Assembly (NCBI GenBank): GCA_963716745.1
Contig: OY970320.1
Span: forward strand, 2,336,001 to 2,400,000
Reading direction: 5' to 3'
Origin: an uncultured Gemmatimonadaceae bacterium
GTDB taxonomy: Bacteria > Gemmatimonadota > Gemmatimonadetes > Gemmatimonadales > Gemmatimonadaceae
DNA: 64,000 nucleotides
The notes under the pieces were generated by a model. That model made no database searches. It saw only the letters and a program-made list of their open reading frames with translations, and was not told the origin of the DNA. Below are positions 10,578 through 62,612 of the stretch, piece after piece; within the stretch, counting starts at the first letter, position 1, and each line of letters begins with the position of its first letter. The position numbers and the translations under genes are program-made.

Positions 10578-10762
10578 ATGGGCATCGCAGAGGCTTGGTT
10601 GTCGGGGGCACGCGGCATCGCTGGAGTAGCGATAACGCATTTCGAACGTCGCCTGAGCCGGCGCGCATTCCTAGAATGTGCGAAGGCGTCAACTGTTCTT
10701 GTTAGTACGGCCCTTTACGATCGCTTGCGCGGGGCCGTTCTCGATTCCCGAATCCCGAGCCG

Positions 10763-11878
10763 TTACCCGTTCGCAGCTCGCCGCGCCGCGATCTCGATCG
10801 GGACGATGGTCCCGTCCTTCGGCAGGATCTTCGGCTGCTTGTATGAATAGCGCTTCCCCTCGTAGTTCCTGAACACCACTTCGTCGTCGTTGATGGACTC
10901 GACGTATTCGGGCAGGAGCGGGACCTTCCCGCCGCCGCCGGGGCTGTCGATCACGAAATACGGGATCGCCAGCCCACTGGTCCACCCGCGCAGCGCCTTC
11001 ATGATCTCTAGCCCAGTCTGGACCATGGTGCGGAAATGCTCGCCGCCGGCGACCTGGTCGGCCATGTAGATATAGTAGGGGCGCACGCGCGCCTTCAGCA
11101 GCTCGTGCATCAGTTTCATCATGATCTTGGGGTCGTCGTTCACTCCGCGCAGCAGCACGGTGTGCGCGCCGAGCACGACACCAGCCTTACTCAGCCGGTC
11201 CAGCGACGCAACGGTGTTCGGCGTCAGCTCGCTGGGGTGATTGAAGTGGGTGTTCATATAGATCGGATGATATTTCTGCACCATCTCGCAGAATTCCGGC
11301 GTGATCCGCTCGGGCAAATGCGCGGTGATCCGGCTCCCAATGCGGATGATCTCGACATGCGGGATCTCACGCAGCTTTTGGAATATGTGCTCCAAACGCC
11401 GGTCCGAAAGCATCATCGGATCGCCGCCCGATAGGATCACATCCCGCACTTCGGGATGATTCCGGATATACTCGAACGCCGAATCATACTGATTGAGCGG
11501 GATCTTCTCCGGATCGCCCACTTTGCGGCGCCGCGTGCAGAAGCGGCAGTACGTCGCGCACACGGGGCTCACGAGGAACAACACGCGATCGGGATACCGG
11601 TGCGTGATGTTCGGCACCGGACTGTCGCCGTCCTCGTCCAGGCTGTCGATCACGCCGTCGGTGATCTGCAGCTCCTCGACGCTCGGGATGTATTGCTTCC
11701 AGATCGGGTCGTCCACTTCCTTGATCAGGTCCAGCACTTCGGGCGTGATCCGCATCTGGAAGTTGTCGAACGCCGGCGCCAGCGCTTCCACGTCGATATT
11801 CTCGCGGCCGAACTTCTCCGCGAGCTTCTCGAGGGTCGCGATGCTGTCGTCCTTGAGGATCTTCTGCCAGTCGCTCAT
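10763..11878 (-). CDS. KamA-family radical SAM 2,3-aminomutase
   Basis: HRYPDRVL, CATYCRFCTRRR (CxxxCxxC), SGGDP, HFNHP, GWTSG, PGGGGK PLP-lysine motif. Confidence 0.93.
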   Translation of the reverse strand: MSDWQKILKDDSIATLEKLAEKFGRENIDVEALAPAFDNFQMRITPEVLDLIKEVDDPIWKQYIPSVEELQITDGVIDSLDEDGDSPVPNITHRYPDRVLFLVSPVCATYCRFCTRRRKVGDPEKIPLNQYDSAFEYIRNHPEVRDVILSGGDPMMLSDRRLEHIFQKLREIPHVEIIRIGSRITAHLPERITPEFCEMVQKYHPIYMNTHFNHPSELTPNTVASLDRLSKAGVVLGAHTVLLRGVNDDPKIMMKLMHELLKARVRPYYIYMADQVAGGEHFRTMVQTGLEIMKALRGWTSGLAIPYFVIDSPGGGGKVPLLPEYVESINDDEVVFRNYEGKRYSYKQPKILPKDGTIVPIEIAARRAANG

Positions 11879-12399
11879 TTCCGCCCGCCGGTAAGAGTCT
11901 TCGTCAGCATCACGCGGTCGTCGTCCACCGCATAGAAATCGCGGATCCGCGCCTGTTCGGTATACCCACGCGCCGTGTAGAACTTGCGCGTCCCTTCGTA
12001 GTCGCCGCGGCTGGAGGTCTCGATCAGGATCATTCTGCCGCGCGCCCTACTCACTCGCTCTTCCACTTCCGCCACTAGCGCACGCCCGGCCCCTCTTCCT
12101 TGCGCCTCTCTAGCCGTCGCGATCCAGTACAAATCCCACGTTCCTTCAGTGACCGGCGTTGGACCAAATGCGGCGTATCCGATCAACGCACCACTCCCAT
12201 CGAACGCCCCTACGAACTGATAGTCGGTATCGGGCTCTTCACCCCGCAATCCAAAGCAGGAATCGAACACCTCGAGCGCGACCTCTACCTCATTCTCCCG
12301 GAACGAACCCGTCCCCCGCACGATCGCCTCGAGGCGATCGCGGTGGCTCGCGTTCATTTCACCAATGCGCACCTCACCAGGCTGCGCGCCGGCGGTCAT
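11875..12399 (-). CDS. GNAT acetyltransferase
   Basis: WDLYWIA..REAQGRGAGRAL, FY..RGY; ATG overlaps stop of upstream ligase (ATGA) and its stop overlaps the KamA start. Confidence 0.85.
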   Translation of the reverse strand: MTAGAQPGEVRIGEMNASHRDRLEAIVRGTGSFRENEVEVALEVFDSCFGLRGEEPDTDYQFVGAFDGSGALIGYAAFGPTPVTEGTWDLYWIATAREAQGRGAGRALVAEVEERVSRARGRMILIETSSRGDYEGTRKFYTARGYTEQARIRDFYAVDDDRVMLTKTLTGGRK

Positions 12400-13458
12400 C
12401 CCTGGGCGACGAAGAGATCCAGTGCGATCCGGTCGGCAATGGTCGCGGGCACGCCGCTCAGCGTGCGCGCCGCCAGCCAGAGTTCGTCGGCCGAGTCCTT
12501 GCGGCGCTTCAGAGCGCTCGCGCACACGGCATGGATCATGTCGGCATACTCGAGACCGGCCACGCGCGCCATGCGCGCCAGAGCCGGCGTCGGGTGCGAT
12601 ATCGGGATTCGAATTGACCTCGAGGATCCACGGCTTGCCCGCGCGATCAATGCGCATGTCCACCCGGCCGTATCCCTCGCCGCCGGCCAGGCGCCAGGCT
12701 CTGAGCGCGATACGCTTCAGCTCCTCGCTCTGATCCTTCGGCATCTTGGCGGGACACTGCGGCACGCTGCCCAGATCCTCGTCGCAGCCAGTTTCCCACT
12801 TGCTCTTGTAGCTCACGATGCGCCACATCCCGCGCGGCATGCCGTCGAACTTGATCTCGGCAACCGGCAGCGCGCGGTCGCCCAGGATGCCGACGTTCAC
12901 TTCGCGGCCGTCCACGAATTTCTGGACGAGCACCTCGGTCCACCGCTCGTGCATCGCCATCACGCGCTCGGAGAGCTGGCGCGCGTTGCGCACCACGCTC
13001 CGCTGCTCCACGCCAATGGACGCGTCCTCGGCGGCGGGCTTCACGATCGCGGGATAGCCCACGTGCGGCATCGGATCGCCGGGGTGCACCAGCGCGAAAC
13101 GCGGGATGGGCAGGCCGGCGCGGTCGAGCAGGCTGTTCACGACATGCTTGCGGAGACACATCGACGTCGTCCAGCTCGAGCTGCCCGTATACGGAAGCCC
13201 GATCACTTCCACCGCACTAATGACGCTCGGCTCCAGCTCGGCGACTCCGTCCACGCCTTCGCACAGATTGAAGATCAGATCGAACTTCCCGCGGCGCACG
13301 CGCTCCACCCAGCGGCCGTCAGGATTCACCGGAACGCGCACCACCGTATTGCCGTCGGGGGTGAGCGCGTTCTCCACCGCCTCCACAGTATCGAGGATGG
13401 CGAGATCCGCGCCCTTGCCGAGCGCGGCGGGTCCGTCGAAGAGGACACCGATCTTCAT
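12396..13458 (-). CDS. D-Ala-D-Ala-ligase-like ATP-grasp enzyme 2 (frameshift near 12590)
   Basis: FNLCEG, PYTGS, IVKPAAEDASIG, GREVNV, YGRVDMR, LEVNSNPD; C-terminus in ORF 12396-12650. Confidence 0.88.
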
Positions 13459-13479
13459 GTTGTTTCTCCTTGCTTGCGC

Positions 13480-14804: not shown

Positions 14805-14872
14805 TGATTTCTTTGGAGAAATATTTTCACGCACTACGGCACGACTCACGACATCACTTGCACATCCAACCT

Positions 14873-15500
14873 TGCAGTCAACAGTAAACAGTCACGAGTG
14901 ACTGCCAGTCAACAGTTCACAGTCAACAGCTCACAGAAAACAATTCAGCGTGCGCTGCTGTGATGATGACGATTGGAAAGTTTGGAGGTAGCATGCGCGA
15001 TGCAGATCAGAAGTCATCGGGATCTCATCGTGTGGCGGCGCGCGATGGAGTTCGTGGCGGAGGTGCACGGCCTCAAGCGGAAATTCCCCGCGCGTGAGGG
15101 GAAGGAGTTGTGGAATCAGCTCCTTCGCGCGGCGATGTCCGTGCCCTCGAACATCGCGGAGGGTGCTGGTAGAACCTCTCGCGGTGACTACGCTCGGTTT
15201 CTGTCGATCGCCCGCGGCTCCATACAGGAGGCCGATACTCATCTCGCGATGGCCGTCGCCTTCGGCTACTTGCGACCCGAGGACATCCACCGGGCCGAGG
15301 CACTGAGCTACGAGGTACTGCGGATGCTCACGAAACTCGCGAGCGTTCTCGCCAAGCCCGCGCCCGAATCCGCCACGATGTGAAAAGGGAGGTCGGCCGC
15401 GCACATTGCGCTCGGCCGCCTCCCCGATCCGCTTTCTGTGACCTGTTGACTGTTGAGCTGTTGACTGGCAGTCACTCGTGACTGTTTGCTGTTGACTGCA
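14873..15500. mobile_element. Inverted-repeat element (family A) carrying a four-helix-bundle gene
   Basis: Arms 14873-14939 and 15433-15500 are reverse complements (3 substitutions, 1 indel), built of CAGTCAA-like heptamers; same arms at 24276-24479 without the gene. Confidence 0.7.
15000..15383 (+). CDS. Four helix bundle protein (23S rRNA IVP / Avd-like family)
   Basis: SHRDLIVWRRAM, FP..E, QL.RAAMSVPSNIAEG.GR, FLSIARGS..E signature. Confidence 0.92.
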   Translation: MQIRSHRDLIVWRRAMEFVAEVHGLKRKFPAREGKELWNQLLRAAMSVPSNIAEGAGRTSRGDYARFLSIARGSIQEADTHLAMAVAFGYLRPEDIHRAEALSYEVLRMLTKLASVLAKPAPESATM

Positions 15501-16342: not shown

Positions 16343-17965
16343 TTAGCGTCGCCCAACGCCGAAAGCCGCGATCTGTTCCACGCTCGCTCGCGCTCGATGG
16401 AATCCAGCGCCGCCCGCGCCGCCGCCGGCAGCGGCGGCAAGGCCGGGTCGTACTTTACGTCGCCCACCGGCTTCTGACCGGCAGCCGGCACCTTCACGCC
16501 CGGGATTCAAGATCCCGGCCGGATCGAACGCGTCCTTCACGATCTTGAACAGCGCGCGCGATTCATGATGCCACGTCCGGTCCATGAGCGGTGTCCGGAT
16601 CCGGCCGTCGCCATGCTCGCCGCTCAGCGTCCCGCCAAGCTTCTGCACGAGCTCGGTCACGTCCTCGAGCACGCCATCGACCGTCTCGCGCCAATCGCTC
16701 GCGCTCACGTCGACGAGCGGATTCACGTGCATGTGCGCATCGCCGGCGTGCCCGAAGATCACGCCCTTCACGCCATGATCTTCCAGGATCTTCCGCACGC
16801 CGCGCACGTAGTCCACGAGTTGGTCGGGCGGCACGGCGCCGTCTTCGATGAATTGCATGCTCTTGAGCCGAGGATCGAGGCGGGCGAGGATCGGACTCGC
16901 GGCGTGGCGAAGTTTCCACAGGGCGCCCTCGCTCCCGGGGTCGAGCGCGACGCGGATATTCATCGCCCCCGCGCCGCCGAAGAGCCCTTCGAGCTGCCGG
17001 GCGGCCGCGATAGCGGACGTCGCGTCTCCGGCCTCGACTTCTACGAGCAGTACAGCATCGGTGCCATCCGTGACGCCAATGTCGTCGCCCTCGCTGGTCG
17101 CGACGGCCAGGAACGTCCGGTCGATCAGCTCGCACGCGCTCGCGCCATTCGCGCGCGCCCGCGCCGCCGCATCCACGGCCTGCATCACGCTCGCGAACTC
17201 GGCGAGCAGCGTGCACGTCGCGGCCGGAACGGGCACGAGCGACACCTCGACGCCCACGAACATCGCGAGCGTCCCCTCGCTGCCGACGAGGAGATCGATC
17301 AGCTCGCCGCTGCGCGCGTAGTCCGCGAGCGCGTAGCCCGAGCTCTCCTTGCGCACGCCGGGATGCTGCCGGTAGCGGCCGGGCGAGGCGAGGATCGCGG
17401 GATGCGCGGTCTTGTGGAACCGTTCGAGCGCGGGAATGTCCGGCGGGAGCGGTGAGCCGCGGCGCACCACGGCGCGCGAGCCGTCGTCGAACACGCAATC
17501 GAGCGCCGTGACCCAGGCGCGCATCGCGCCGTAGCGCACGCTGTGCGCGCCGGCCGCGTTGGTCGCCGCCATGCCGCCCACAGTGCAAAAGGCGCCGCTC
17601 GACGGGTCCACCGGGAATCTCAGTCCATGCGCGCGTGCCTTCTCATTCACCTCCGCGCGCGTCGCGCCCGGCCCCGCCCACACTCGGCGCCATGTCTCGT
17701 CCAACCGGGACACTCCGCCCAGCCGCGAGAGGTCGACGATGACACCGTCGCCCACCGCGCCGCCGGCCATCCCGCTGCCGCTGCCGCGCGGGATGAGCGG
17801 CATCGCGTTCGCGCTCGCCCATTTTGCGAGCGCGCACACATCGTCGGCGTCGGCCGGCACCGCGACCGCCCGCGGGATGACGCGCGCGATCCCCGCGCCC
17901 TCGGAATAGACGGCGCGTGCCAATTCGTCCTCGCGAAAGATCCCGCGGAATCCGGTCGGTTGCAC
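16343..17965 (-). CDS. FAD-linked oxidase (GlcD/D-lactate dehydrogenase-like)
   Basis: RGSGSGMAG, PVDPSS, TVGGM..TNAAG, GSEGTL, GHAGDAHMH, SGEHGDG; start approximate, C-terminal frameshift likely. Confidence 0.85.
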   Translation of the reverse strand: MQPTGFRGIFREDELARAVYSEGAGIARVIPRAVAVPADADDVCALAKWASANAMPLIPRGSGSGMAGGAVGDGVIVDLSRLGGVSRLDETWRRVWAGPGATRAEVNEKARAHGLRFPVDPSSGAFCTVGGMAATNAAGAHSVRYGAMRAWVTALDCVFDDGSRAVVRRGSPLPPDIPALERFHKTAHPAILASPGRYRQHPGVRKESSGYALADYARSGELIDLLVGSEGTLAMFVGVEVSLVPVPAATCTLLAEFASVMQAVDAAARARANGASACELIDRTFLAVATSEGDDIGVTDGTDAVLLVEVEAGDATSAIAAARQLEGLFGGAGAMNIRVALDPGSEGALWKLRHAASPILARLDPRLKSMQFIEDGAVPPDQLVDYVRGVRKILEDHGVKGVIFGHAGDAHMHVNPLVDVSASDWRETVDGVLEDVTELVQKLGGTLSGEHGDGRIRTPLMDRTWHHESRALFKIVKDAFDPAGILNPGREGAGCRSEAGGRRKVRPGLAAAAGGGAGGAGFHRARASVEQIAAFGVGRR

Positions 17966-18029
17966 GAAAGGGAGATTGGCGACCCGCGGCCTCGTTGACA
18001 AGCGTCTCACGCGGCGGCCATCATCCCTC

Positions 18030-18839
18030 ATGGCCATTGACGCACCGCGCGAGCACGGTCAGCTGATCAAGATCGAGACCGACCGCCGGCTCGGACACGA
18101 GTGGGACGAATGGGACGGCACGCCCCTGGATAACGGAGGCGATTTCCGCTCGCCCGCTCGCCTCTATTTCGGCTTCACCGCGGTGGGGTTCGCGATCGCC
18201 GCCGCGGTGCTCGCGGCGGGGGTCTATTTGCTGGCCCCGCGCCTTGGGGCTTTGTTCGGTTCGGGGGTCCCGGCGGCCCTCTACTATAGTATAGGCGGGG
18301 GGCTGGTTCTCGGGCTCGTTTGGCTGGGGCTGATCGCGGCCGCCGTCTATTCGGGGCGGGCCGTGCTCCCGGAGCGGTTGGCCGAACGGGGACTCCTCTT
18401 GAAGACCCTCAATCTCGCCTGGCGCACCGGCGAGCTCTTTGGTGTGAAGCGCGATTGGACGGGACACGCATCCGTGGCCGTGTACGACCGGCTCGCACTC
18501 GCAAGAGAACGATCACTCTCGCCCGATGAATTGCTCATCCTCGTTCCGCGATGCTTGTCGCGGGAATCGTTGGATGGCGTTCTCGCCATCGCGAAGCGGC
18601 ACGGCGTATCGGCGTTCGTCGCGACGCGCGGCCAATTGGCGCGACGCGTGATCAAGGAACGGCGTCCGAAAGCTGTCGTGGCCGTAGCATGCGAACGCGA
18701 CATGGTCAGTGGATTGCACGATGTGGCGGGGCGGGTGCCGGTGCTGGGGCTGACCATGACGCTGCCCAACGGGCCGTGTAAGGATGCTTCGATCGATCTG
18801 GCGCGCATGGAAGAGTTTGTCGCACGTTATCTGAAATAG
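18030..18839 (+). CDS. DUF116-like membrane protein
   Basis: 2 TM helices; LILVPRCL, VAVACERD, NGPCKD motifs. Confidence 0.75.
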   Translation: MAIDAPREHGQLIKIETDRRLGHEWDEWDGTPLDNGGDFRSPARLYFGFTAVGFAIAAAVLAAGVYLLAPRLGALFGSGVPAALYYSIGGGLVLGLVWLGLIAAAVYSGRAVLPERLAERGLLLKTLNLAWRTGELFGVKRDWTGHASVAVYDRLALARERSLSPDELLILVPRCLSRESLDGVLAIAKRHGVSAFVATRGQLARRVIKERRPKAVVAVACERDMVSGLHDVAGRVPVLGLTMTLPNGPCKDASIDLARMEEFVARYLK

Positions 18840-18845
18840 CGCCGG

Positions 18846-19003
18846 AACTGCAGACCTAGACGCTAGATCTAGACGCTAGAAGGCAACTGCAACTAGAATC
18901 GCAACTACGGGCTGTTGGCTGTCGGCTGTCGCCTGCTTGCGACAGTCGACAGCCGACAGCCCGTTCTTGCTGTGGCTGCGGCAGTTTAGCGTCTAGGCCT
19001 GCA
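18846..19003. repeat. Nested IR element: family C arms outside, family B hairpin (18907-18964) inside, AACTRC hexamer spacers
   Basis: AGACCTAGACGCT units; GGCTGTT/GGCTGTC vs GACAGCC heptamers; between convergent genes. Confidence 0.85.
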
Positions 19004-19005
19004 CT

Positions 19006-19698
19006 TCAGTATCTCGCTCCCCCCACCGGCACCTCGGCAGCGAGAGACCACCGCATTCCATCGCGCGAGAGGATCAGGAACGCTGCGGCCTCGAGGTGGC
19101 CGGGCTCCACCGAGCGGCGCTCGCGCAACGTAGCGTATAGCATTGCGGTATTCGCATCCGGCGTGATGCCGGGGATGCTGAGCGAGAGGATGCCGGGGAG
19201 GCTGTCCAGCGGAAGGCCCGCAAGGACGTCGGTCACGACGCTCTCCTTCATCGGCTCCTCGGCGCCAGGCGCGAGGATGTGCCGCACGGTGGAGGAATCG
19301 AGGAATGTCTCCTGCGTGCTACCAACCACGTATCCGAGATGTCCGTCGAGCCAATGACTCGTCGCGTTCGCCGCGCGATAACTCGTTAATAAGCTGTCGA
19401 GCATGCCAGGCGGCACGACTCTGCGCAATGCGGTGATGATGCTTGGATCGGATAGATGCACCGCACCCGATTCGCTTTGCATTTGCAATAGAACGACACC
19501 GCGGCGGTACTGGTTGGCGTACTGCAATGGATGGTATACGGTATCGATCACCGCGACGTACAGCTCATCTTCTTGCGGCACGACGCCCTTTTCGCGCGGA
19601 TTTCCCCGTAGCGGCGTGCCCGCGAGGGCGCCGGCGACGAGAATGAGCCAGATGCCGCCGATCATGAGCGCCGGCGCTATCAGTTTATTGCGCGACAT
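19006..19698 (-). CDS. Hypothetical exported protein
   Basis: ORF with N-terminal hydrophobic helix; no family recognised. Confidence 0.6.
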   Translation of the reverse strand: MSRNKLIAPALMIGGIWLILVAGALAGTPLRGNPREKGVVPQEDELYVAVIDTVYHPLQYANQYRRGVVLLQMQSESGAVHLSDPSIITALRRVVPPGMLDSLLTSYRAANATSHWLDGHLGYVVGSTQETFLDSSTVRHILAPGAEEPMKESVVTDVLAGLPLDSLPGILSLSIPGITPDANTAMLYATLRERRSVEPGHLEAAAFLILSRDGMRWSLAAEVPVGGARY

Positions 19699-19724
19699 GG
19701 CTGGGCGAGCGCACCGCAACGGCA

Positions 19725-19886
19725 GGCTGTTGACTGTCGGCTGTCGCCTGCTGGAACATGATGATCATGTAAATCATGTAAATCCTGTCCAAGTATTTCG
19801 GTTCGCGACAGCCGACAGCCGACAGCCCGTAGTTGCAGTTGAAGTAGCAGTGGCCGTCTAACGTCTCAGTCTAGAGTCTAAGTCTG
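19725..19886. repeat. Composite repeat: family B arms enclosing a family D 9-mer tract, followed by a family C arm
   Basis: GGCTGTTGACTGTCGGCTGTCGC / ATCATGTAAATCATGTAAATCCTGTC / GCGACAGCCGACAGCCGACAGCCC / GTCTAACGTCTCAGTCTAGAGTCTAAGTCTG. Confidence 0.85.
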
Positions 19887-19890
19887 TCGT

Positions 19891-20259
19891 TCAGTTCCAG
19901 CCGCCGCCGAGTAGGACATGGAGGGCGGAGAGCGTGAATTCGATGATGGCGCCGATGCTGATGAATGCGGCGATCCAGCGCAATGATTCATACGCCGTCG
20001 TGACCGCCTTCGGCGGGTTGGGGGTGGCGTGCGCATAAGTGAGCGCGCGGTCCACGAGTCCCCAGAACGCCGTTCCGGTGGCGGCGATTAGGAGCATGCC
20101 GAGCATCCATGCCTTCGGCCATGCGAGGAGGATCACCGTACTGCCGAAGAGTCCGGCGCTGAGCGCCGCAACGAGCGAGCGGATGCGCAGGGCGCGCAGC
20201 CGCGCCGCAACGTTGCCGATGGCCGATGGCCGATGGTCGATGGCCGGATCGTCCGCCAC
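19891..20259 (-). CDS. Hypothetical 3-TM membrane protein
   Basis: GTG overlaps the ppk2 stop; three hydrophobic segments. Confidence 0.6.
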   Translation of the reverse strand: MADDPAIDHRPSAIGNVAARLRALRIRSLVAALSAGLFGSTVILLAWPKAWMLGMLLIAATGTAFWGLVDRALTYAHATPNPPKAVTTAYESLRWIAAFISIGAIIEFTLSALHVLLGGGWN

Positions 20260-21143
20260 TATTTCTGCTTCTCGATGAGCTTCCGTGCCGCGGCGAGGTC
20301 TTTCTTCTGCTCGGGTCCGACCTCGGGGTATTCGAGCTTCAGCGAATCGAGCGCCTCGATCACTGCGCCCGCGACGACGAGCCGGGTGAACCATTTGTTG
20401 TCGGCCGGCACGACGTACCACGGGGCGTGCTTCGAGGATGTGTTCCGGATCATGTCCTCGTAGACTTCCATGTATTGATCCCAATAGCCGCGTTCGACGG
20501 CGTCGGCGCTGGAGAACTTCCAATTTCGCGCGGGTTCATCGAGGCGCCCCAGGAATCGCCGTTTCTGCTCGTCTCTCGAGACGTGGAGGAAGAATTTCCG
20601 GACGAGCACGCCATTGTGGTACAGGTACTGCTCGAAATTGTTGAGGTCTTCGAAGCGCTCTTTCCAGATGTCCTTCGTGACCCGGCTCTTCGGGAGCTTC
20701 TGTTTGGCGAGGAACTTCTCGTGCACGCGCACGGCGAGCACTTCTTCGTAGTACGACCGGTTGAAGATGCCGATGCGTCCGCGCTCGGGCAGATTCTTGG
20801 ACGTGCGCCAGAGGAAATCGTGGTCGAGCTCTTCGCTCGACGGCGATTTGAAGGAGAACACCTGGCAGCCCTGCGGATTGACGCCCGACATGACGTGCTT
20901 GATCGCGCCGTCCTTGCCCGCGGCGTCCATGGCCTGGAAGATGAGCAGTACCGCCCACCGGTCCTGCGCGTAGAGCTTGTCTTGCAGCGCAGCGAGCGTC
21001 TCGATGCCTTCGGCGAGCGCTTTCTTGTGCCCGGTCTTGTCGTCGAGCCGGCCCGTGCTGCCGGGGTCGATATCGGCGAGATGGAACTTGGCGCCGTCGT
21101 TGATGCGGAAGGGTTTGATGAACCGTTCGATATCGTACGCCAT
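20259..21143 (-). CDS. ppk2: Polyphosphate kinase 2 family protein
   Basis: LLIFQAMDAAGKDG, FKSPSSEELDHDFLWR, FNRSYYE, APWYVVPADNKW. Confidence 0.93.
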   Translation of the reverse strand: MAYDIERFIKPFRINDGAKFHLADIDPGSTGRLDDKTGHKKALAEGIETLAALQDKLYAQDRWAVLLIFQAMDAAGKDGAIKHVMSGVNPQGCQVFSFKSPSSEELDHDFLWRTSKNLPERGRIGIFNRSYYEEVLAVRVHEKFLAKQKLPKSRVTKDIWKERFEDLNNFEQYLYHNGVLVRKFFLHVSRDEQKRRFLGRLDEPARNWKFSSADAVERGYWDQYMEVYEDMIRNTSSKHAPWYVVPADNKWFTRLVVAGAVIEALDSLKLEYPEVGPEQKKDLAAARKLIEKQK

Positions 21144-21242
21144 CGCGAGCCCCCGTGAAGTTGTCTCATTATATGCCCTGGAGCGCCGGGCGGCGAATGG
21201 ACGGCGTTGCCGACGCTGGCCGCGCTTCATAGATTCCGAATA

Positions 21243-21326
21243 ACCGCCAGGGGTACTCCGGGACGACCGGAGTTGAGAGAGTCCCTTGGAACCTGATCCG
21301 GGTCGAGCCGGCGTAGGGAGCGCGGT
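21243..21326 (+). ncRNA. TPP riboswitch
   Basis: GGGG...TGAGA...CCCTTGGAACCTGATCCGGGT...CCGGCGTAGGGAG directly upstream of thiC. Confidence 0.9.
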
Positions 21327-21400
21327 GCAGTCGCCACAGTACTTGTGGCATCGCGCGCCCCATTCCGGCCGGAACTACCCGGATCGCTCCTCAGCACTGA

Positions 21401-23026
<1,626 letters not shown>

Positions 23027-23034
23027 ACCGCAAT

Positions 23035-23250
23035 TGCAACGACTTTATGGGGATAACTAACCGGATGCTAGCGGATCAAATGGATTGCTCCGTGTGGCGG
23101 GATGGATCGCACAGCCGCGACTGGCGTTGTGTTTTTGTTGTTAACAACAAGAACGCGGACTCGATCGCGCGCCTAGGAGCTTCCGGCGGGCAGGAGGCAA
23201 TCCATTTGATCCGCCAGCATCCGGTTAGTTATCCCATTAGAGTCGTTGCA
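23035..23250. repeat. Family E long hairpin element between thiC and thiS
   Basis: Arms 23035-23088 and 23197-23250 are near-perfect reverse complements with GGAT about every 9 nt; central GTTAAC hairpin. Confidence 0.85.
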
Positions 23251-23270
23251 CCTGCAGTTGGAGGTTTGCA

Positions 23271-23465
23271 ATGACCGTGAACGGTGAATCGCGCGAATAC
23301 AGAACAGGGTTGACCCTCTTCGCGCTGCTCGAGGATGTGAAGGTGGACGCGCGGGCGGCGGCGGTGATGGTGGGGGAGGAGGTCTATCGTCCTGGAAGGA
23401 TCCCCGACATCGCGCTCAAGGAGAGCGATGTCATTGAGATCGTCAGCATGATGCAGGGAGGTTGA
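23271..23465 (+). CDS. thiS: Sulfur carrier protein ThiS
   Basis: 64 aa, C-terminal GG, between thiC and thiG. Confidence 0.92.
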
Positions 23466-23466
23466 G

Positions 23467-24265
23467 ATGCACGACCCACTCGTGATCGGCGGCAAGTCGT
23501 TCGGCTCGCGCCTGATGCTCGGCACGGGCAAGTATCGCGATCTTGCCGTGATGAAGGACGCCTTCGAATGCGGCCGCGGTCGAGATCGTTACCGTGAGCA
23601 TCCGCCGCGTGGAACTCGGCGCGCCGGGGCACACGGGATTGATGGATGTGCTCGCGAAGGGGAGCTATCAGCTGCTGCCGAACACCGCCGGCTGCAAGAC
23701 CGCCGAGGAAGCCGTGCGCGTCGCGCGGCTCGCGCGCGCGATGAGCGGCACCGAATGGCTCAAGCTGGAAGTGATCCCCGACGCGAAATATCTGCTGCCG
23801 GATCCGGTGGGTACTTTGCGCGCGGCCGAGATCCTGGTGGGGGAGGGATTCACCGTTCTTCCCTATATGAATGCCGATCCCGTGCTCGCGCGGCAGCTCG
23901 CGGCGGCGGGTTGCGCGACCGTGATGCCTCTGGCGTCACCGATCGGCAGCGGCCGCGGAGTGCTCACGCGGGCGGCGATCGAGATCATCATTGAGGAGAG
24001 TACTGTGCCCGTGGTGGTGGACGCGGGACTCGGCGTGCCCAGCGAGGCCGCGGCGGTGATGGAGCTCGGGGCGAATGCGGTGTTGGTGAATACTGCGATC
24101 GCGGAGGCGGAGTCGCCTGTTCAGATGGCGGCGGCGTTCAGGAAGGCGGTGGAGGCTGGGAGGATGGGGTATTTGGCTGGACGGATGCCGATTCGGGCGC
24201 ATGCTAGCCCGTCGAGTCCTGTGGCGGGGGTTGTTACGTTGCCTCAGCCGGAGGTTCCTGCCTAA
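23467..24265 (+). CDS. thiG: Thiazole synthase (frameshift near 23575)
   Basis: [41 protein letters not shown]. Confidence 0.94.
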
Positions 24266-24275
24266 CTGCGGTACG

Positions 24276-24479
24276 GCGGTCAACAGTAAACAGTCACGAG
24301 TGACTGCCAGTCTACAGTCAACAGTCAACAGGTCACAGAAAACGTCTCCACGAACAAACGGGCCTCCCGATCGCTATTCAGGATCGAGAGGCCCGTTCCT
24401 TCGTGATCTGACTTCTGTGAACTGTGAGCTGTTGACTGTCGACTGGCAGTCACTCGTGACTGTTTACTGTTGACTGCAG
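24276..24479. mobile_element. Gene-less copy of the family A element (MITE-like)
   Basis: Arms 24276-24341 and 24413-24479 match the arms flanking the four-helix-bundle gene; interior is about 70 nt. Confidence 0.7.
24357..24397. terminator. Hairpin between convergent thiG and hbd, inside the family A arms
   Basis: AACGGGCCTC...GAGGCCCGTT stem. Confidence 0.55.
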
Positions 24480-24487
24480 TGAGTAGT

Positions 24488-25375: not shown

Positions 25376-25431
25376 TCTCTATCTCAGAAAGTAGGTTGAG
25401 TAATCCGAACTGCGTGCCTGGAACCGCAACA

Positions 25432-25531
25432 GGCGGGGCTAGTACCGCAAGCTGCGTGTGTAGCGTTGGCGTTGGGAAGGCGCGCATCCTAACGCTATCG
25501 CTAACGCGCCGTTGGCGGTACCAACCCCGCC
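25432..25531. repeat. Family G hairpin element
   Basis: GGCGGGGCTAGTACCGC / GCGGTACCAACCCCGCC; second copy at 51560-51689. Confidence 0.75.
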
Positions 25532-25532
25532 G

Positions 25533-26345: not shown

Positions 26346-26350
26346 CGCCC

Positions 26351-28997: not shown

Positions 28998-29021
28998 AGG
29001 GCAGCGTGAACCACGAGGCGC

Positions 29022-47814: not shown

Positions 47815-47900
47815 ACAGCAGACTTAGACGCTAGACCTAGACGCTAGAAGGCGACGGCGTCTGCTTTCTAGCGTCTAGGTCTAGCGTCTAAGTCTGCTGT
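47815..47900. repeat. Family C element, perfect 35-bp inverted repeat
   Basis: ACAGCAGACTTAGACGCTAGACCTAGACGCTAGAA and exact reverse complement at 47866-47900; between convergent genes. Confidence 0.9.
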
Positions 47901-48919: not shown

Positions 48920-49045
48920 GGCGACCATTATGGGTCGCAGAATCTCCTGTGGGAAGAGTGGATTTTGCCCTTCGGTTGACCCCTCCACGGGGTTATATTT
49001 CGTGGTCCTGAGATCGGTGTTTTCGCCCCGTCCAGCCCCCACAAA

Positions 49046-51550
<2,505 letters not shown>

Positions 51551-54191: not shown

Positions 54192-55312
54192 GCGCACGCT
54201 GTCCGTCTTGCGGTACCGTGTATCCTGACGACGTGAAGTTCTGCGCCAAGGACGGCACGAAACTTCTGATGTCGAGCACGCCGTCGCCGACGCCCGCGAC
54301 GCCGCCGCTGGGCGTGACGCCCGTCGGGACACCGGCGGTGATGCCGCCGCCTCCCGCGCCGCGCAGCCCGACGCCGCCGTTCGCCGGATCGCGCACCGTG
54401 GACTTCAGCAAGCTCACGGGGCAGCTGCTGGACAACCGCTATCAGGTCGTGAAGAAGGTGGGCGAAGGCGGCATGAGCTTCGTGTACCTCGCGCAGGACA
54501 CGAACACCGGCGAGAAGGTGGCGATCAAGATCCTGTCGCCGGCGCTGATCAAGGACCCGACCGCCATGGCGCGCCTGCGCCGCGAGGCCGCGCTCGGCGG
54601 GAAGCTGGCGCATCCCAACGTGTGCCACATCATCCGCCTCGGCGAGACGACCGCGGGATTCGTGTACATCGTGATGCCCTTCGTGCAGGGGGAATTGCTC
54701 TGCGACCGCACCGTGCGGATGGGATATTTGCCGCTCGATGTGACGGCCGGCTTCGTGCGCGACATGTGCGCGGGGCTGCACGTGGCGCACGAGCTCGGGA
54801 TCATCCATCGCGACTTGAAGCCGGAGAACATCATGATCGTCGCGCGCCCCGACGGATCGGAGCGCGCCGTGGTGATGGACTTCGGTCTCGCGAAGGAGCG
54901 CGCGATGAGTCCGGAGGTGCAGAAGCTCACCGCCACCGGGATCGTGCTCGGCACGCCGGAGTTCATGAGCCCGGAGCAGCTGCGGGGCAAGCAGCTGGAC
55001 CCGCGCACCGACGTGTACTCGCTCGCGATCATGGTGTACGAGATGCTCACCGGGAAGCTGCCGTTCGAAGGGAGAACGCAGCAGGAGATCATGATCGCGC
55101 GGCTCAAGGGCGATCCGATCCCGATCCGCACCAAGCGCCCCGACCTGAATTTCCCAGCGGGCGTGGAGAAAGTGCTCGCGAAAGCGCTGGCGAGGGAAGC
55201 GGACGGCCGATACTCGGGGACGCTCGAGTTCGGCGAGGCGTTCACCAAGGCGGCGGCGGGGGAGGATGTGCAGGAGGAGGGAGGGGGGATCATGAGTCGG
55301 TTCTTCAAATAA
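54188..55312 (+). CDS. Hanks-type Ser/Thr protein kinase with N-terminal zinc ribbon
   Basis: CPSC..FCAKDG, GEGGM, VAIK, HRDLKPEN, DFG, GTPEFMSPE. Confidence 0.95.
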   Translation: MSARCPSCGTVYPDDVKFCAKDGTKLLMSSTPSPTPATPPLGVTPVGTPAVMPPPPAPRSPTPPFAGSRTVDFSKLTGQLLDNRYQVVKKVGEGGMSFVYLAQDTNTGEKVAIKILSPALIKDPTAMARLRREAALGGKLAHPNVCHIIRLGETTAGFVYIVMPFVQGELLCDRTVRMGYLPLDVTAGFVRDMCAGLHVAHELGIIHRDLKPENIMIVARPDGSERAVVMDFGLAKERAMSPEVQKLTATGIVLGTPEFMSPEQLRGKQLDPRTDVYSLAIMVYEMLTGKLPFEGRTQQEIMIARLKGDPIPIRTKRPDLNFPAGVEKVLAKALAREADGRYSGTLEFGEAFTKAAAGEDVQEEGGGIMSRFFK

Positions 55313-55315
55313 CTG

Positions 55316-55543
55316 CGAACGGCGTGAGTGCCGAGTCGTGCGTGTTCGACCACGAACGGCGTGCGTGCCGAGTCGTGCGTGTTCGACCACGAACGGCGTG
55401 AGTGCCGAGTCGGGCATCGCGACGCACGACGATCGTGCCTGACGCACGACTGGATACTCGCGCATTCAGTGGTCGACGACTCACGACTTGGTACTCACGC
55501 CCCAAGGGGTCGAACACGCACGACTCGGTACGCACGCCGTTCG
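55316..55543. repeat. Family F element: 2.6 tandem 37-nt units plus an inverted unit
   Basis: CGAACGGCGTGAGTGCCGAGTCGTGCGTGTTCGACCA at 55316, 55353, 55390 (partial); inverted at 55508-55543. Confidence 0.9.
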
Positions 55544-55589
55544 GACGTAGCAAGTTGCTGATCCCGGGCGCCCCAATGAGATTCCACGC

Positions 55590-56721: not shown

Positions 56722-57758
56722 AACGGCAGGGGCGTGAGTGGCGAATGCTGTGCGTGAGTGGGGCGATCGTTCTTGCGCTACCGTGCTCGGCACAGACCTC
56801 GGCGGCGACCACGCGCGCGTATGCGCTCGTCGCGCGCGGCGACACGATGCTTCTCGCCGGCCGGCTCTTCGGCGCGGACTCGGCCTACTACGCGGCGGCG
56901 CGGCTGGCGCCACACGATGGTGCCGTGCGCATGGCGCTGGGCCGCTACATGTTCGGACGCGGCGGCTGGCGCGTGGCGGCGGTGGCCATGGAGGAGGCGC
57001 GCCACTTCGGGGAGGATCCGGCGATCGTCGCCGTCGACATCGCGCCCGTGTACTCGATGCTCGGCATCGCCGATTCACTGCACAAACGCCCAGACGACTG
57101 GGCGGCGCTGGCCGCACTCCCGAGCGCGGCGGTGCCACTCGGCGAGCGGCTGCGCGCCGACTATCTGCACACGTCGCCGCCCGACATGCTGGGGCCCGAT
57201 TCGTCGATCGTGATGTACACCGTGAGCGACAGCCATCTGCTCGGGCGTGTGAAGCTCGCGATCGGCAATGACACTGTGTTCGCCGTGATCGACGCGCGCG
57301 TGCATGGGCTCGTGCTCGACACGTCGTGGATGCGGCGCGATTCCGTGGTGAAACGGTTCGGGCCCAAAGGATCTCGCGATCCCGCGCAGGTGTACGCCGT
57401 CATTTCGCGAGTGAAAATGGGCGACGTCACTTTCGTCAATGCGCCCGCGCGATTCCAGGGATTCAAGACGCCGGGGAACGCACTGATCGGCCTCGACGTG
57501 TTCGGCGCACTCGCGGCGACGTTCGACCCGCGCGTGGGTTATCTCATGGTGCGGAAGGGCGGCCGAGTGGGAAGCACGCTCCCCGGCTGGCGGATCCCGT
57601 CATTCTCCGGCAAGAACGGCGTGATGGTCGTGAAGGGCGACACGATGTTCCCAGTGGGTCATCCGGACGTGCAGCAGTATTTTCGCACCGGGAAATGGAC
57701 GTTTGATGCGAGGCATGGGGCGGTCGTGATCGATTCGGTGGGGGTGGCGGCGAACTAA
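56718..57758 (+). CDS. Secreted protein: TPR-like N-terminus and degenerate retropepsin-like domain
   Basis: Signal peptide; helical repeats; FAVIDA and ALIGLD in pepsin-like positions. Confidence 0.55.
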   Translation: MKRQGREWRMLCVSGAIVLALPCSAQTSAATTRAYALVARGDTMLLAGRLFGADSAYYAAARLAPHDGAVRMALGRYMFGRGGWRVAAVAMEEARHFGEDPAIVAVDIAPVYSMLGIADSLHKRPDDWAALAALPSAAVPLGERLRADYLHTSPPDMLGPDSSIVMYTVSDSHLLGRVKLAIGNDTVFAVIDARVHGLVLDTSWMRRDSVVKRFGPKGSRDPAQVYAVISRVKMGDVTFVNAPARFQGFKTPGNALIGLDVFGALAATFDPRVGYLMVRKGGRVGSTLPGWRIPSFSGKNGVMVVKGDTMFPVGHPDVQQYFRTGKWTFDARHGAVVIDSVGVAAN

Positions 57759-57760
57759 CA

Positions 57761-57861
57761 GCGGGCTGTCGGCTGTTGGCTGTTGCCTTCTACGACGAAG
57801 GGCTCCCCACTTCCGGGAGCCCTTCGTATTCGCAGGCGACAGCCGACAGCCGACAGCCCGC
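57761..57861. repeat. Family B arms enclosing a terminator-like hairpin (57795-57827)
   Basis: GCGGGCTGTCGGCTGTTGGCTGTTGCCT / AGGCGACAGCCGACAGCCGACAGCCCGC around ACGAAGGGCTCCC..GGGAGCCCTTCGT. Confidence 0.85.
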
Positions 57862-57874
57862 AGTTCGTCGCTGT

Positions 57875-58273
57875 TTATCCCCCGACAGTGAACGTCTTCG
57901 TCGCGAGCACGGCGCCCGTGGCATCCAGCACCGTCACCTTCCACTCGCCGGTCCAGTCGGCGGGGATGGTCTTGCGGCTGTACGTGCGCCATGGCGAGCC
58001 GCTGACGTTGAGCGTCACGGTGTCGGTGTGCGGGCCGTGGCTCCAGACGTGCATGATCTTGCTTCCCGATGCGCCGCTGACGTTGCTCAGCGCGACGAGC
58101 ATGCCGACACTCGCTGGAAACGTCGAGCCGGTGTCGGTAACTGCGCGGTTCTCGAGCGTCTTGCCGACCACGACGTCCGCCATGATGGTCGGGGCCGGCG
58201 CTGAGGCTGGCGCTTGCACGGCCGCCATGAGTGCCACGACGCCGATGAGGGCCAGCAACTTGCCTGTGCGCAT
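57875..58273 (-). CDS. DUF2914-like exported protein
   Basis: Signal peptide; HVW...WRTYSRK.I....GEWKV. Confidence 0.75.
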   Translation of the reverse strand: MRTGKLLALIGVVALMAAVQAPASAPAPTIMADVVVGKTLENRAVTDTGSTFPASVGMLVALSNVSGASGSKIMHVWSHGPHTDTVTLNVSGSPWRTYSRKTIPADWTGEWKVTVLDATGAVLATKTFTVGG

Positions 58274-58301
58274 GAGATGATCTCCGAAGAGGTTCGGGGC
58301 A

Positions 58302-58337
58302 GTCTAACGTCTAGGTCTAACGTCTCAGTCTGCAGTT
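58302..58337. repeat. Family C half element
   Basis: GTCTAACGTCTAGGTCTAACGTCTCAGTCTGCAGTT abutting the cytochrome c stop. Confidence 0.75.
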
Positions 58338-59179
58338 CAGCTCCCAAGCCCGTGCAAATACGCGTAGACCGCGGCGATCTCGGAGTCGGTGAATTGCGAG
58401 AACTGCTCCTTCGCCACCTCCGACATCGTCGGGAGCTTCGGATTCCCCGGTGCGACGCCGGTGCGCATCAACGTCGCGAACTCCCCCGGGGAGAATCCCT
58501 TCACGATGCGGAGGTCCGGCGTCGGCATGAATCCGTCGCCCCGCAGCTGCGCGCCATGGCATTCGGTGCAGGTGGTCTGGACGAGGTAGCGGCCGCGCTC
58601 GGCCAACGAATCGGTGGCGGCGGGCAGCGGCAGCCACCCCGAGATGATCTGCGGCTGCGTCCTGAATTTTCCCGCGACGACGCCGAAGCGCCCGAGCGGC
58701 CCCATCGCCAGGCCCGGTTCGAATCCATCGACAGCTGGCACGCTGCGCACGTACGCCAGGATATGAGCGAGATCGGCATCGGTCAGATACTGGAACGTGG
58801 CGGCCGGCATCGCGAACACGCCGCGCCCGCCGGGGCGCATGCCGTGGCGCATGATCTGCGCCAGTTGGGCATCGCTGTACCGTTTGACGCTGTGCGTGAG
58901 GTTGGGCGCGATGAGCCGCGCGACGCCCTTCTGATCGAAGAAGTTCGTGCCCTGCAGTTGCTTGCCATGGCACCCTTCACATCCGCGGATGACCGCCAAT
59001 CGGTGTCCCTCGGCGATCGACGCCGAGTCCGTGGGAAGCACCAGCGCGACGGCCGCGGGCTCGGGCCACACTCTGTTGATCTTCTTCTCGGAGATCAGGT
59101 AGATCGCGGTGTACGCGATGATCGCGAGCACGACCACGCTCGTCGCCGCAATGCGCAGCCATTTCAACGCACCGCTCAT
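58337..59179 (-). CDS. Membrane-anchored diheme cytochrome c
   Basis: CEGCH and CTECH; APNLT; N-terminal TM. Confidence 0.9.
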   Translation of the reverse strand: MSGALKWLRIAATSVVVLAIIAYTAIYLISEKKINRVWPEPAAVALVLPTDSASIAEGHRLAVIRGCEGCHGKQLQGTNFFDQKGVARLIAPNLTHSVKRYSDAQLAQIMRHGMRPGGRGVFAMPAATFQYLTDADLAHILAYVRSVPAVDGFEPGLAMGPLGRFGVVAGKFRTQPQIISGWLPLPAATDSLAERGRYLVQTTCTECHGAQLRGDGFMPTPDLRIVKGFSPGEFATLMRTGVAPGNPKLPTMSEVAKEQFSQFTDSEIAAVYAYLHGLGS

Positions 59180-61116: not shown

Positions 61117-61153
61117 GGGGGATACGCTATGACGCGAACGACGACGGCGGAAG

Positions 61154-61277
61154 GGCGGACTGTCGGCTGTCGGCTGTTGCGTGCGAACTGCTCGACCGCC
61201 GGGCTGGCGACAGCCGACAGCCAACAGCCCGTCGTTCGAGTAGTCTAACGTCCCAGTCTAGAGTCTAAGTCTGCAGT
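61154..61277. repeat. Family B hairpin plus family C arm
   Basis: GACTGTCGGCTGTCGGCTGTTGC / GCGACAGCCGACAGCCAACAGCCC then GTCTAACGTCCCAGTCTAGAGTCTAAGTCTGCAGTT. Confidence 0.85.
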
Positions 61278-61336
61278 TGGTTAGATTTAGAACTCTGCAA
61301 CAAACACTTTAGTTCGCTCCAAAGAGACCCCCAAAA

Positions 61337-62485
61337 ATGCGAATGCTCGTCCTTGGGGCCGGCCTTCAGGGTTCGGCCTGTGCCTATGATCTGCTCCAGA
61401 ATCCCGATGTGAAGGAGGTCCGGCTCGCGGATCTGCACATCACGCACCTGCCGGAATTCCTCGCGCCGTATTCGGGGAAGCGGCTCATCCCGACGCCGCT
61501 CGACGTGCGCGACCGCGATGCGGTGCTCGCGCTGATGAAGGAATCGGACGCGGTGATGAGCGCGATCCCGTACTACTTCAATCTCGATCTCGCGAAGCTC
61601 GCGGTGGAAGCGGGCACGAACTTCTGCGACCTGGGCGGCAACACCGAGATCGTCTTCCAGCAGAAGCAGCTGAGCGAGAAGGCGGCGGCGAAGGGGAAGA
61701 CGATCATCCCCGACTGCGGCCTCGCGCCGGGCATGGTGAACATCCTGGCGCAGCACGGCATCAGCAAGCTCGACAGCGTGAACAGCGTGAAGATCTTCGT
61801 GGGCGGGCTGCCGCAGCATCCGGAGCCGCCGCTCAACTATCAGATCGTCTATTCGCTGGAGGGCGTGCTCGATTATTACACGACGCTCTCATGGGTCGTG
61901 CGCGACGGCAAGCGCACGCAGGTGAAGGCGCTCTCCGAGCGCGAGCCGGTGGAGTTCCCGAATCCGGTGGGGATGCTCGAAGCGTTCCACACCGCGGGCG
62001 GGCTGACCACCATGGCGTGGCGTTACGAGGGGAAGATCCCGAGCATGGAATACAAGACGCTCCGGTATCCCGGGCATGCGCACATCATGGAAGCCATTCG
62101 TGAGCTGGGACTGCTCGATCTCGCGCCGGTGGATGTGAAGGGGACGAAAGTGATCCCGCGCGATGTGACCGTGGCGACGATGGGCCCGCGGCTCACGAAG
62201 CCGACGGGGCGCGATCTCGTGGCGCTGCGCGTGGTGGTGGACGGCATGAAAGCCGGCAAGTCCGCGAGAGTGGGCTGGGAGCTGATCGCATACTACGACG
62301 AAGCGCGCGGCATTTCCGCGATGATGCAGACGACGGGCTATTCACTCTCGATCACCGGGCAGATGCAGGCGCGCGGCGAGATCAAGCCGGCGGGTGTGCA
62401 TACGCCGGATGAGTGTGTTCCGGCGGACGAGTACATCGCGGCGCTGGATAAGCGGGGCGTGCACATCAAGGAGATGAAGTTCTAA
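61337..62485 (+). CDS. Saccharopine dehydrogenase / lysine 6-dehydrogenase family
   Basis: LGAGLQG, DLGG, DCGLAPG, VGGLP, YKTLRYPGH. Confidence 0.88.
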   Translation: MRMLVLGAGLQGSACAYDLLQNPDVKEVRLADLHITHLPEFLAPYSGKRLIPTPLDVRDRDAVLALMKESDAVMSAIPYYFNLDLAKLAVEAGTNFCDLGGNTEIVFQQKQLSEKAAAKGKTIIPDCGLAPGMVNILAQHGISKLDSVNSVKIFVGGLPQHPEPPLNYQIVYSLEGVLDYYTTLSWVVRDGKRTQVKALSEREPVEFPNPVGMLEAFHTAGGLTTMAWRYEGKIPSMEYKTLRYPGHAHIMEAIRELGLLDLAPVDVKGTKVIPRDVTVATMGPRLTKPTGRDLVALRVVVDGMKAGKSARVGWELIAYYDEARGISAMMQTTGYSLSITGQMQARGEIKPAGVHTPDECVPADEYIAALDKRGVHIKEMKF

Positions 62486-62612
62486 CTGCAGGATATCGGC
62501 TGTCTGGGCCGCAGGGACATTCGGGGCCTCCAGAGTTACTTCGGGGGCCCTTCTTGCTTCCTATAGAGGGGAGCGGCAAGCTCCTCGCGACCCAACTCAA
62601 TCGGAGATCTTC

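Follow-up and report, generated by a model that had tools for sequence, protein, structure and literature searches.

Why do repeat families that cannot be aligned with one another begin with the same few nucleotides, and why do these nucleotides so often coincide with the stop codon of a gene? We addressed this question in a 64,000-nt stretch from an uncultured Gemmatimonadaceae bacterium (assembly GCA_963716745.1, contig OY970320.1), hereafter the window, which comprises bases 2,336,001-2,400,000 of a single 3.29-Mb contig with 67% G+C; the host genome is 89.8% complete. A preliminary description of the window had listed stops fused to a hexamer, AACNRC, each followed by a different repeat family, and had taken the hexamer for a shared insertion signature or scar. 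Our answer, given with fair confidence, is that the families form one superfamily of hairpin cassettes, which resemble the intervening sequences (IVS) of ribosomal RNA (rRNA) and share AACNRC/GYNGTT as their outermost unit. With less confidence, we regard this end unit as the junction joining the elements to the A or AA of existing stops. The complete account, in which a shared cassette end unit meets the chromosome at the stop through joining at A/AA followed by selection, has in our judgement an even chance of being correct. What is new is the shared end unit.

A hexamer fused to stop codons

All 12 stops cited previously are present with the letters reported after them, as are the tandem hexamers at 18885-18908 and 19829-19840 (window coordinates count from the first letter of the window; "host genome" coordinates refer to the whole contig). 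Pfam backs nine of the neighbouring genes (KamA-like, ThiC, ThiG, 3-hydroxyacyl-CoA dehydrogenase, GT2, GNAT, Ser/Thr kinase, cytochrome c and saccharopine dehydrogenase), and since the domain matches reach near the C-termini, these are natural gene ends.

For genome-wide counts, genes were called by codon-usage score with a crude caller, which gave 3036 genes (TGA 1821, TAG 825, TAA 390). The strict motif AACT[AG]C (AACTRC), to which the loose AACNRC is far inferior in specificity, overlaps the stop in 86 of them. CTRC follows TAA at 59/390 called stops, compared with 32/3365 non-stop TAA triplets in coding and 72/3313 in intergenic sequence; for TGA followed by ACTRC the corresponding counts are 27/1821, 178/63342 and 54/14074. 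Downstream repeats were flagged with 15-mers, a 12-mer mask having been discarded as it declared 31% of positions of this GC-rich genome "repeated". AACTRC marks the stop of 56/363 genes with a downstream repeat and of 30/2673 genes without (Fisher p = 2e-32), and AACNRC that of 91/363 and 90/2673, respectively; the motif is commoner before repeats and not equally frequent in genes lacking elements. The impression that TAA is over-represented is borne out before repeats: TAA accounts for 97/363 stops before repeats and for 293/2673 elsewhere. Among 150 stops beside repeat arms we counted 63 TAA, 65 TGA and 22 TAG, the genome-wide shares being 13%, 60% and 27%.

The repeat families are arms of small cassettes

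The repeat families had been called unrelated. This holds insofar as they cannot be aligned with each other, but all of them are arms of cassettes that carry a PF05635 or a PF13366 gene. PF05635/TIGR02436 is, according to the accessible part of PMC10053308, the four-helix-bundle protein of 23S rRNA IVS, distantly like Avd, a protein of diversity-generating retroelements. The host genome holds four full PF05635 matches (109-119 bits, cut-off 33.8; mutual identity of these paralogues 41-44%) and three partial ones, in addition to one full (131 bits, cut-off 22) and one broken match to PF13366 (GxxExxY, TIGR04256), whose product looks nuclease-like. Every match is flanked by inverted arms of its own family, which also occur gene-less after stops. 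The arms are mostly built of ~7-nt units, inverted so as to form a long stem. The families and their arm-seed matches in the host genome are:

Family A: GCGGGAA units; cassette gene at host genome 568266; 291 matches.
Family B: no gene copy in the host genome; 147 matches.
Family C: arm type CGGGAACCGGTT..; cassette gene at host genome 2133889; 81 matches.
Family D: GGCTGTC units; cassette gene at host genome 2198608; 64 matches.
Family F: cassette in the window (14872-15500); 23 matches.
Families E, G and H: the three partial or divergent PF05635 copies; 28, 72 and 18 matches.
Family X: CATGTCAAT-type units; GxxExxY gene; 68 matches.

The three open reading frames (ORFs) at host genome 1008029, 2641426 and 3095125 match the middle of PF05635 alone (32-53 bits) and resemble each other; they make up a second PF05635 subtype, the one linked to arm families E, G and H, which are longer and not built of heptamers. 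Further open frames between arms resemble ordinary neighbours or non-coding frames, as judged by eye with no family search. The copies examined all lie between protein genes and none in 23S rRNA. Gene-less and one-armed copies far outnumber full cassettes.

The repeat families are arm sets of diverged members of one cassette kind, so that a single element type accounts for at least nine arm families of this genome and a common mechanism becomes plausible. The architecture extends beyond this genome: among PF05635 loci from many phyla (80 fetched), about 60 of 79 show, by eye, inverted arrays of ~7-nt units around the gene. These units often hold stop codons, and some are of the AAC type (loci L113, L129 and L176).

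Arm families cluster along the chromosome. One 50-kb bin contains 31 of the 81 family C seed matches, and two others 38 and 26 matches of family A. In the arm-rich bins (host genome 900-950 kb, 800-850 kb and 950-1000 kb), most genes are separated by elements, and gene orientation is mixed. Local clustering suggests short-range spread or conversion.

Position and pairing of the end unit

End-unit statistics are based on 466 outward-facing arm starts of families A-D, an arm counting as next to a stop if it is at most 26 nt from a called one. The preliminary description had placed the motif at the element boundary, and it is found there: immediately outside the arms, on their 5' side, families A, B, C, D and G have the consensus AAC[T/G][G/A]C, and the family E unit itself includes GAACGGC. 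AACNRC directly precedes 97/150 arms near stops compared with 83/316 arms elsewhere (p = 3e-15); the unit is not restricted to stops. Arms not near a called stop still show the consensus far above chance (A.43, A.59, C.52, C.63), and since it is visible even away from genes, the unit is element-borne. The cytosines at positions 3 and 6, which lie outside the stop, reach.87 and.93 beside stops compared with.52 and.63 elsewhere. A logo of the ends of all intergenic palindromes lacked AAC because palindrome extension halts at AACTAC/GCAGTT mismatches; the logo of outermost paired bases was replaced by counts anchored on the arm families.

Arm-to-stop distances are stepped. There are 43 arms at 4 nt (TAA+CNRC), 28 at 5 nt (TGA+ACNRC), 39 at 10-12 nt and 15 at 16-19 nt, and only 1 arm at 0-3 nt, 7 at 6-8 nt and 7 at 13-15 nt. 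We therefore read the leaders as one to three units, the outermost of which is fused to the stop. After TAG stops the form is TAG+ACNRC. Units have the form (T/G/A/C)AACNRC, in one to three degenerate copies that run from the stop into the inverted arms, and only about seven leaders have a spacer of 1-3 nt before AAC. Stacked hexamers might record nested symmetrical insertion. This idea fits single loci (18885-18908 compared with its trailer) and was rejected genome-wide, where leader and trailer unit counts are uncorrelated (r = 0.14, permutation p = 0.22).

In two folded hairpins, the AACNRC/GYNGTT hexamers are base-paired as the foot of the stem (57756-57877: -92.5 kcal/mol, z = -13.8; 41508-41628: -94.5 kcal/mol, z = -11.2). 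The folds are near-perfect stems. In 13 convergent gene pairs, including thiG/3-hydroxyacyl-CoA dehydrogenase, both stops are fused to the two ends of one element. Hexamer pairs without a spacer also occur at the apex of family X palindromes.

Elements of the window

The window contains the following elements and fused stops; those at 47818-47897 and 61154-61278 had not been cited before.

10733-10765, minus strand: stop TAA (10763-10765) of the KamA-like gene, fused to CGGC and a single TCGGGAT-type arm (family A-like).
14872-15500, plus strand: full cassette, family F arms (14872-14941 and 15429-15500) around a four-helix-bundle gene (15000-15383; TIGR02436, 103 bits, cut-off 24).
18845-19005: nested element, namely a family B arm, four hexamers (18885-18908), a complete family D palindrome, a degenerate trailer and a family B arm.
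19720-19893: family D palindrome whose loop contains GxxExxY-type (family X) units; then GTAGTT GCAGTT (19829-19840) and an arm of family B, which is fused to the stop TGA (19891-19893) of a minus-strand gene.
23024-23262 (end approximate): the stop TGA of thiC, fused to ACCGC AATTGC AACGAC; behind it, a large palindrome of family Y whose core is TTGTTGTTAACAACAAG (23135-23151) and whose trailer reads ..GTCGTT GCACCT GCAGTT.
24263-24490: family F palindrome that occupies all of the space between two convergent stops, that of thiG (TAA-CTGC) and that of 3-hydroxyacyl-CoA dehydrogenase (TGA-ACTAC, minus strand).
25420-25535, minus strand: family G element fused to a stop TAA-CGGC (25533-25535).
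34032-34396, minus strand: family E' array of ~40-nt units, a long palindrome, fused to the GT2 stop TAA-CTAC.
41444-41507, plus strand: stop TGA followed by ACTGC (ACGGC in the relative G002) but not by an arm; an ordinary, terminator-like GC hairpin with a T-run comes next.
41508-41628, minus strand: family A palindrome (GCGGGAN units) with AACTAC/GTAGTT as stem base, fused to the GNAT stop TGA.
47818-47897: family B palindrome.
55310-55560 (end approximate), plus strand: kinase stop TAA-CTGC, then a family E array.
57756-57877: TAA-CAGC and family D arms around a conserved terminator-like hairpin, up to a convergent stop.
58295-58339, minus strand: single family B arm fused to the cytochrome c stop TGA-ACTGC (a full palindrome in the relative G005).
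61154-61278: family D palindrome and a family B arm.
62483-62520, plus strand: saccharopine dehydrogenase stop TAA-CTGC, then a decayed family D arm.

The last of these stops was said to have no clear element after it; the arm is decayed here, and G002 retains GGCTGTC-type units at this place.

Family Y is a further palindrome of ~200 nt present at 19 places in the genome, with cores in the window at 23135-23151 and 28869-28885. In its centre, TTGTTGTTAACAACAA, units of the GTT type directly adjoin units of the AAC type, so that the usual outer order is reversed; the arms consist of CGGAT-type heptamers, and the stretches between core and arms vary among copies. What looked like an exchange of arms around a conserved core at the thiC site proved to be two subtypes of one family with that core (19 copies).

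Rfam found a TPP riboswitch alone in the window (RF00059, 65 bits, 21239-21337), an ordinary one upstream of thiC. Long open frames at 47915-51451 (minus strand) and 49046-51550 (plus strand) overlap on opposite strands and were split by the gene caller.

Comparison with relatives

Two members of the same genus, G002 (~95% identity, 63% complete) and G005 (~84%), are both collinear with the window; G007 and G020, from two other genera, were compared through 200-kb samples. At four orthologous sites that are filled in one genome and empty in another (sites 313, 80 and 197; host genome 2654780), the position of the stop is identical. The elements thus lie directly after the native stop and the genes are not truncated. 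Empty orthologous junctions may be as short as 0-2 nt, e.g. TGA GC TCA or TGA CC ATG.

As to the proposed scar, there is one clean case. At host genome 2597030, arms lie between ..CACTGC and GTAGT.. in this genome and in G005, and G002 reads ..CACCGC|GCAGTC.., which is, to judge from the alignment, a precise loss that left the hexamer pair. Other element deletions (2654780, 2448310) occurred without such a pair. At site 313 (host genome 2672545-2672570) the flanking genes overlap by 8 nt (ATGCGTGA) in this genome, and G002 and G005 have a single arm in between with the 8 nt on both sides. This would be either a duplication on insertion or the sole type of event that selection permits there. 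It is the one case of a possible target-site duplication, as no direct repeats were seen at the other compared junctions.

The same stop plus CNRC bears different arm types in sister species at sites 68 and 328; at site 328, GGCTGTC units correspond to GACTGAC units in G005. After the kinase stop, G002 carries another subfamily behind the same TAA-CTGC-GAAC. The ortholog of the 57756 element in G005 has the same inner hairpin between family B arms, after TAA-CTAC. The gap holding the element at 19720-19893 measures 192 nt here, 78 nt in G002 and 1 nt in G005. Positions 4-5 of the unit, like the variable heptamer positions, often flip between the host and G002, and AAC and the last C stay. The arm arrays seem to change in concert. 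In the element at 41508-41628, the variable position of every heptamer differs in both arms (GCGGGAC/T/A here, GCGGGAA three times in G002). Turnover is raised, not extreme: identity to G002 is at least 80% in 41/54 repeat-bearing gaps compared with 136/153 other gaps. Metagenomic DNA contigs aligned to 17500-37400 of the window were fragmentary, and none of them spanned an element.

In the sampled stretches, stop-fused AACTRC was found at 16/442 stops in the host's own region, 14/536 in G002 and 5/460 in G005, the latter having AACNRC at 22/460. TAA makes up 78/442, 63/536 and 69/460 of stops in these three genomes, and 12/157 and 6/144 in G007 and G020. Within these stretches, the stop-fused trait is confined to this genus.

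How the elements may have come to lie on stops

In our reading, the unit is part of the element, is base-paired at the foot of its stem and lies over the last A or AA of an existing stop (T|AAC, TG|AAC, TAG|AC), so that the gene retains its stop and length. Elements may have been copied in by a process that joins at A/AA, either through microhomology at the junction or through a cut inside AA|C. Given how compact the genome is, selection would then retain copies on stops, and ends elsewhere would decay. If transcribed, the long perfect stems might be substrates of RNase III-type enzymes like the rRNA IVS. That one mechanism could serve many families, as was suggested, gains from the common end unit and the common cassette type, but the mechanism itself is something we infer.

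Several observations weigh against this account. Searches of the host genome for RAYT (repetitive extragenic palindrome-associated tyrosine transposase), reverse transcriptase and small GIY-YIG genes gave no candidate enzyme. Most of the deletions seen leave no hexamer pair, and no insertion event could be polarised with certainty. The strict unit is present at both ends of 38, at one end of 59 and at neither end of 38 of 135 paired elements, so it is frequent at arm ends but not obligatory, and the lack of correlation between leader and trailer counts belongs here as well. The base before AAC shows no T bias at non-stop copies (T 29, G 46, A 21, C 29; n = 125); the element therefore does not carry a whole stop codon. 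The supposed location at gene 3' ends is borne out by the tie to stops and TAA, but elements also occupy 60/384 divergent junctions, in addition to 103/384 convergent and 190/2267 tandem ones, and lone arms in tandem junctions point both ways (60 reverse, 40 forward). Motifs fused to stops number 0/157 in the G007 sample and 0/144 in that of G020, and the outer ends of the 79 PF05635 cassette loci from other phyla are not generally AAC..GTT. Given this absence and the non-AAC ends elsewhere, any dedicated machinery would be lineage-specific. It has to be added that every gene call comes from the crude codon-usage caller, and some counts inherit its errors.

The searches for a mover gave the following. 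The RAYT model (Y1 transposase, PF01797) had no match in the host genome, with matches in 6/14 control genomes; reverse transcriptase (PF00078) was absent from the host genome; the lone match to the GIY-YIG/Ssn nuclease model (PF01541) lies inside a 1198-aa open frame and is not a small Ssn-type gene. A decayed integron-integrase gene is located outside the window at host genome 2775564-2776508, in three pieces in different frames with one in-frame TGA (184 + 80 + 62 bits against TIGR02249), within an 8.2-kb segment of lower G+C that is missing from G002. About 500 nt at host genome 2783001-2783500 have a G+C content of 0.24, with runs of A and T. With regard to miniature inverted-repeat transposable elements, inverted ends are present, one 8-bp duplication was seen (site 313), and no transposase was seen among the cargo.

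The strongest rival assumes selection and compaction only, and we consider it unlikely, though to be taken seriously: elements would land anywhere in intergenic DNA, deletion bias and selection would trim the spacer until the foot of the hairpin touches the stop, and AAC would merely be compatible with TAA and TGA. The genome is indeed compact, with gaps below 25 nt in 136/384 convergent and 1043/2267 tandem junctions, and elements are also found away from stops. Moreover, where the empty orthologous junction measures 0-2 nt, any surviving insert must touch a stop. However, trimming should give a decay curve of distances, whereas they form a sharp ladder with almost none at 0-3 or 6-8 nt. Non-overlapping abutment, i.e. 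a stop directly followed by AACNRC, is nearly absent, and the non-stop cytosines C3 and C6 are better kept beside stops.

This better conservation beside stops would also be expected if the unit were kept for the transcript, where it might close an RNase III or terminator-like structure at the stop, and if different families had converged on it by selection. Hairpins of -92 to -95 kcal/mol have the unit at the base of their stem, and the accessible part of PMC4990558 reports that IVS with a PF05635 ORF are cut by RNase III in the terminal stem. We nevertheless hold a signal of this kind to be improbable. Positions 4-5 flip between the host and G002 regardless of their partner. Many arms, in 100/190 of the tandem junctions, have no partner arm, so that no helix can form. 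Convergence of at least five families on one hexamer is also less economical than common descent.

The R boxes of integron attC sites have AAC and GTT triplets at the hairpin ends as their consensus. The elements here likewise have AAC at their 5' and GTT at their 3' end, and could act as attC hairpins that an integrase joins to genomic GTT/AAC sites, with TAA-C stops as the safest ones. According to the accessible part of bioRxiv 10.1101/2022.09.11.507474, IntI cleaves within the AAC triplet and can insert cassettes at minimal genomic GWT sites, which makes an integron integrase an attractive candidate. Besides the decayed gene of the host, the integrase model is matched above cut-off in 16/31 genomes of the order, and the gene is intact in G005. 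Yet such an origin appears very improbable to us. The host has a broken integrase, and G002 (63% complete), with just as many fused stops, yielded none; conversely, G007 and G020 have intact integrases and no fused stops in their samples. No co-oriented cassette array was seen beside the decayed integrase, nor in the regions rich in repeats, whose genes are of mixed orientation, and nothing array-like was seen among the palindromes listed beside intact integrases of five relatives by a crude palindrome finder of noisy output. The folded elements appear as near-perfect palindromes rather than as asymmetric attC folds, and a single IntI-type crossover should, by our reasoning, give direct and not inverted AAC flanks.

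A related conjecture, which we regard as a long shot, makes the AAC/GTT end the crossover point of a dedicated, lineage-specific recombination system, maybe related to integron integrases, by which hairpin modules would be docked on the A/AA of stops and then stacked, swapped and excised there. If true, this would be a natural joining of attC-like hairpins to ordinary chromosomal genes, a step missing from accounts of integron cassette origin. A recombinase acting at AA|C, if there is one, would also have a bearing on how hairpin recombination sites become attached to genes.

We give almost no credence to RAYT-moved repetitive extragenic palindromes (REPs) or hairpins built from them (REPINs) with GTAG-type tags that donate stops: the high copy number of intergenic palindromes, the GTAG contained in GTAGTT and the TAG stops that GTAG REPs often supply to flanking ORFs (PMC3733652, accessible part) speak for them, but PF01797 is absent from the host genome while control genomes match, the tag here is paired, at both ends and with AAC outermost, as opposed to the unpaired, one-ended REP tag described in the same part of that paper, and the stop used here is TAA or TGA via AAC, not TAG.

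Comparison with known systems

Intergenic hairpin repeats are usually handled family by family, and beyond REP/RAYT their spread is mostly unexplained. For the account favoured here, i.e. joining of a shared cassette end unit at the A/AA of stops, the end unit, its exact overlap with stops, the raised TAA share and the restriction to one genus provide a concrete handle on the mechanism. With subscription journals outside the search, we found no paper that ties heptamer-armed hairpins to PF05635/PF13366 or describes a stop-fused common end unit. The published features compared below are those given in the accessible parts of the cited papers.

Ssn GIY-YIG nucleases with NTS/SRM repeats (PMC11893778) are alike in that a small nuclease gene is flanked by a hairpin repeat that is scattered in hundreds of gene-less copies; the cargo genes here belong to other families. 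REPs and the bacterial interspersed mosaic elements or REPINs composed of them (PMC3733652, PMC2817692) are likewise abundant extragenic palindromes with a short tag and several families, whose ends overlap or donate stops. They are linked to RAYT, whereas the cargo here is PF05635 and PF13366 and the tag is paired, two-ended and of another sequence.

Integron attC/attG sites (bioRxiv 10.1101/2022.09.11.507474) share the bounding AAC ... GTT of a hairpin, and recombination inside AAC and minimal GWT insertion sites would fit the junctions described here. In contrast, our elements appear to be symmetric palindromes and are dispersed after housekeeping genes, without arrays or a working integrase, and their presence does not follow that of the integrase in relatives.

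The TAACTGA heptamers of marine Beggiatoaceae, cyanobacteria and Bacteroidetes (PMC4679880) are intergenic tandem 7-mers that share TAACTG with the TAACTGC found here; some arrays overlap the stop codon of the preceding gene, and what they do has not been explained. They are direct repeats in 2-6 copies that mostly end just before start codons and contain stops in all three frames, and the accessible part of that report neither describes them as hairpin feet nor ties them to PF05635. In our case, one to three degenerate units lead into inverted arms at stops.

The ORF-bearing 23S rRNA IVS of Coxiella and Leptospira (PMC4990558) have a small PF05635-family ORF within terminal inverted repeats that form a long stem, as do the full cassettes here. 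The published stem is an RNase III substrate, and origin and spread are obscure in both cases. The IVS reside in helix 25 or 45 of the rRNA, whereas the elements described here lie between protein genes, are mostly gene-less, comprise many arm families of ~7-nt units and have a common hexamer fused to stops. The element type is thereby tied to two very large uncharacterised families, PF05635 and PF13366, to rRNA intervening sequences and to bacterial heptamer repeats.

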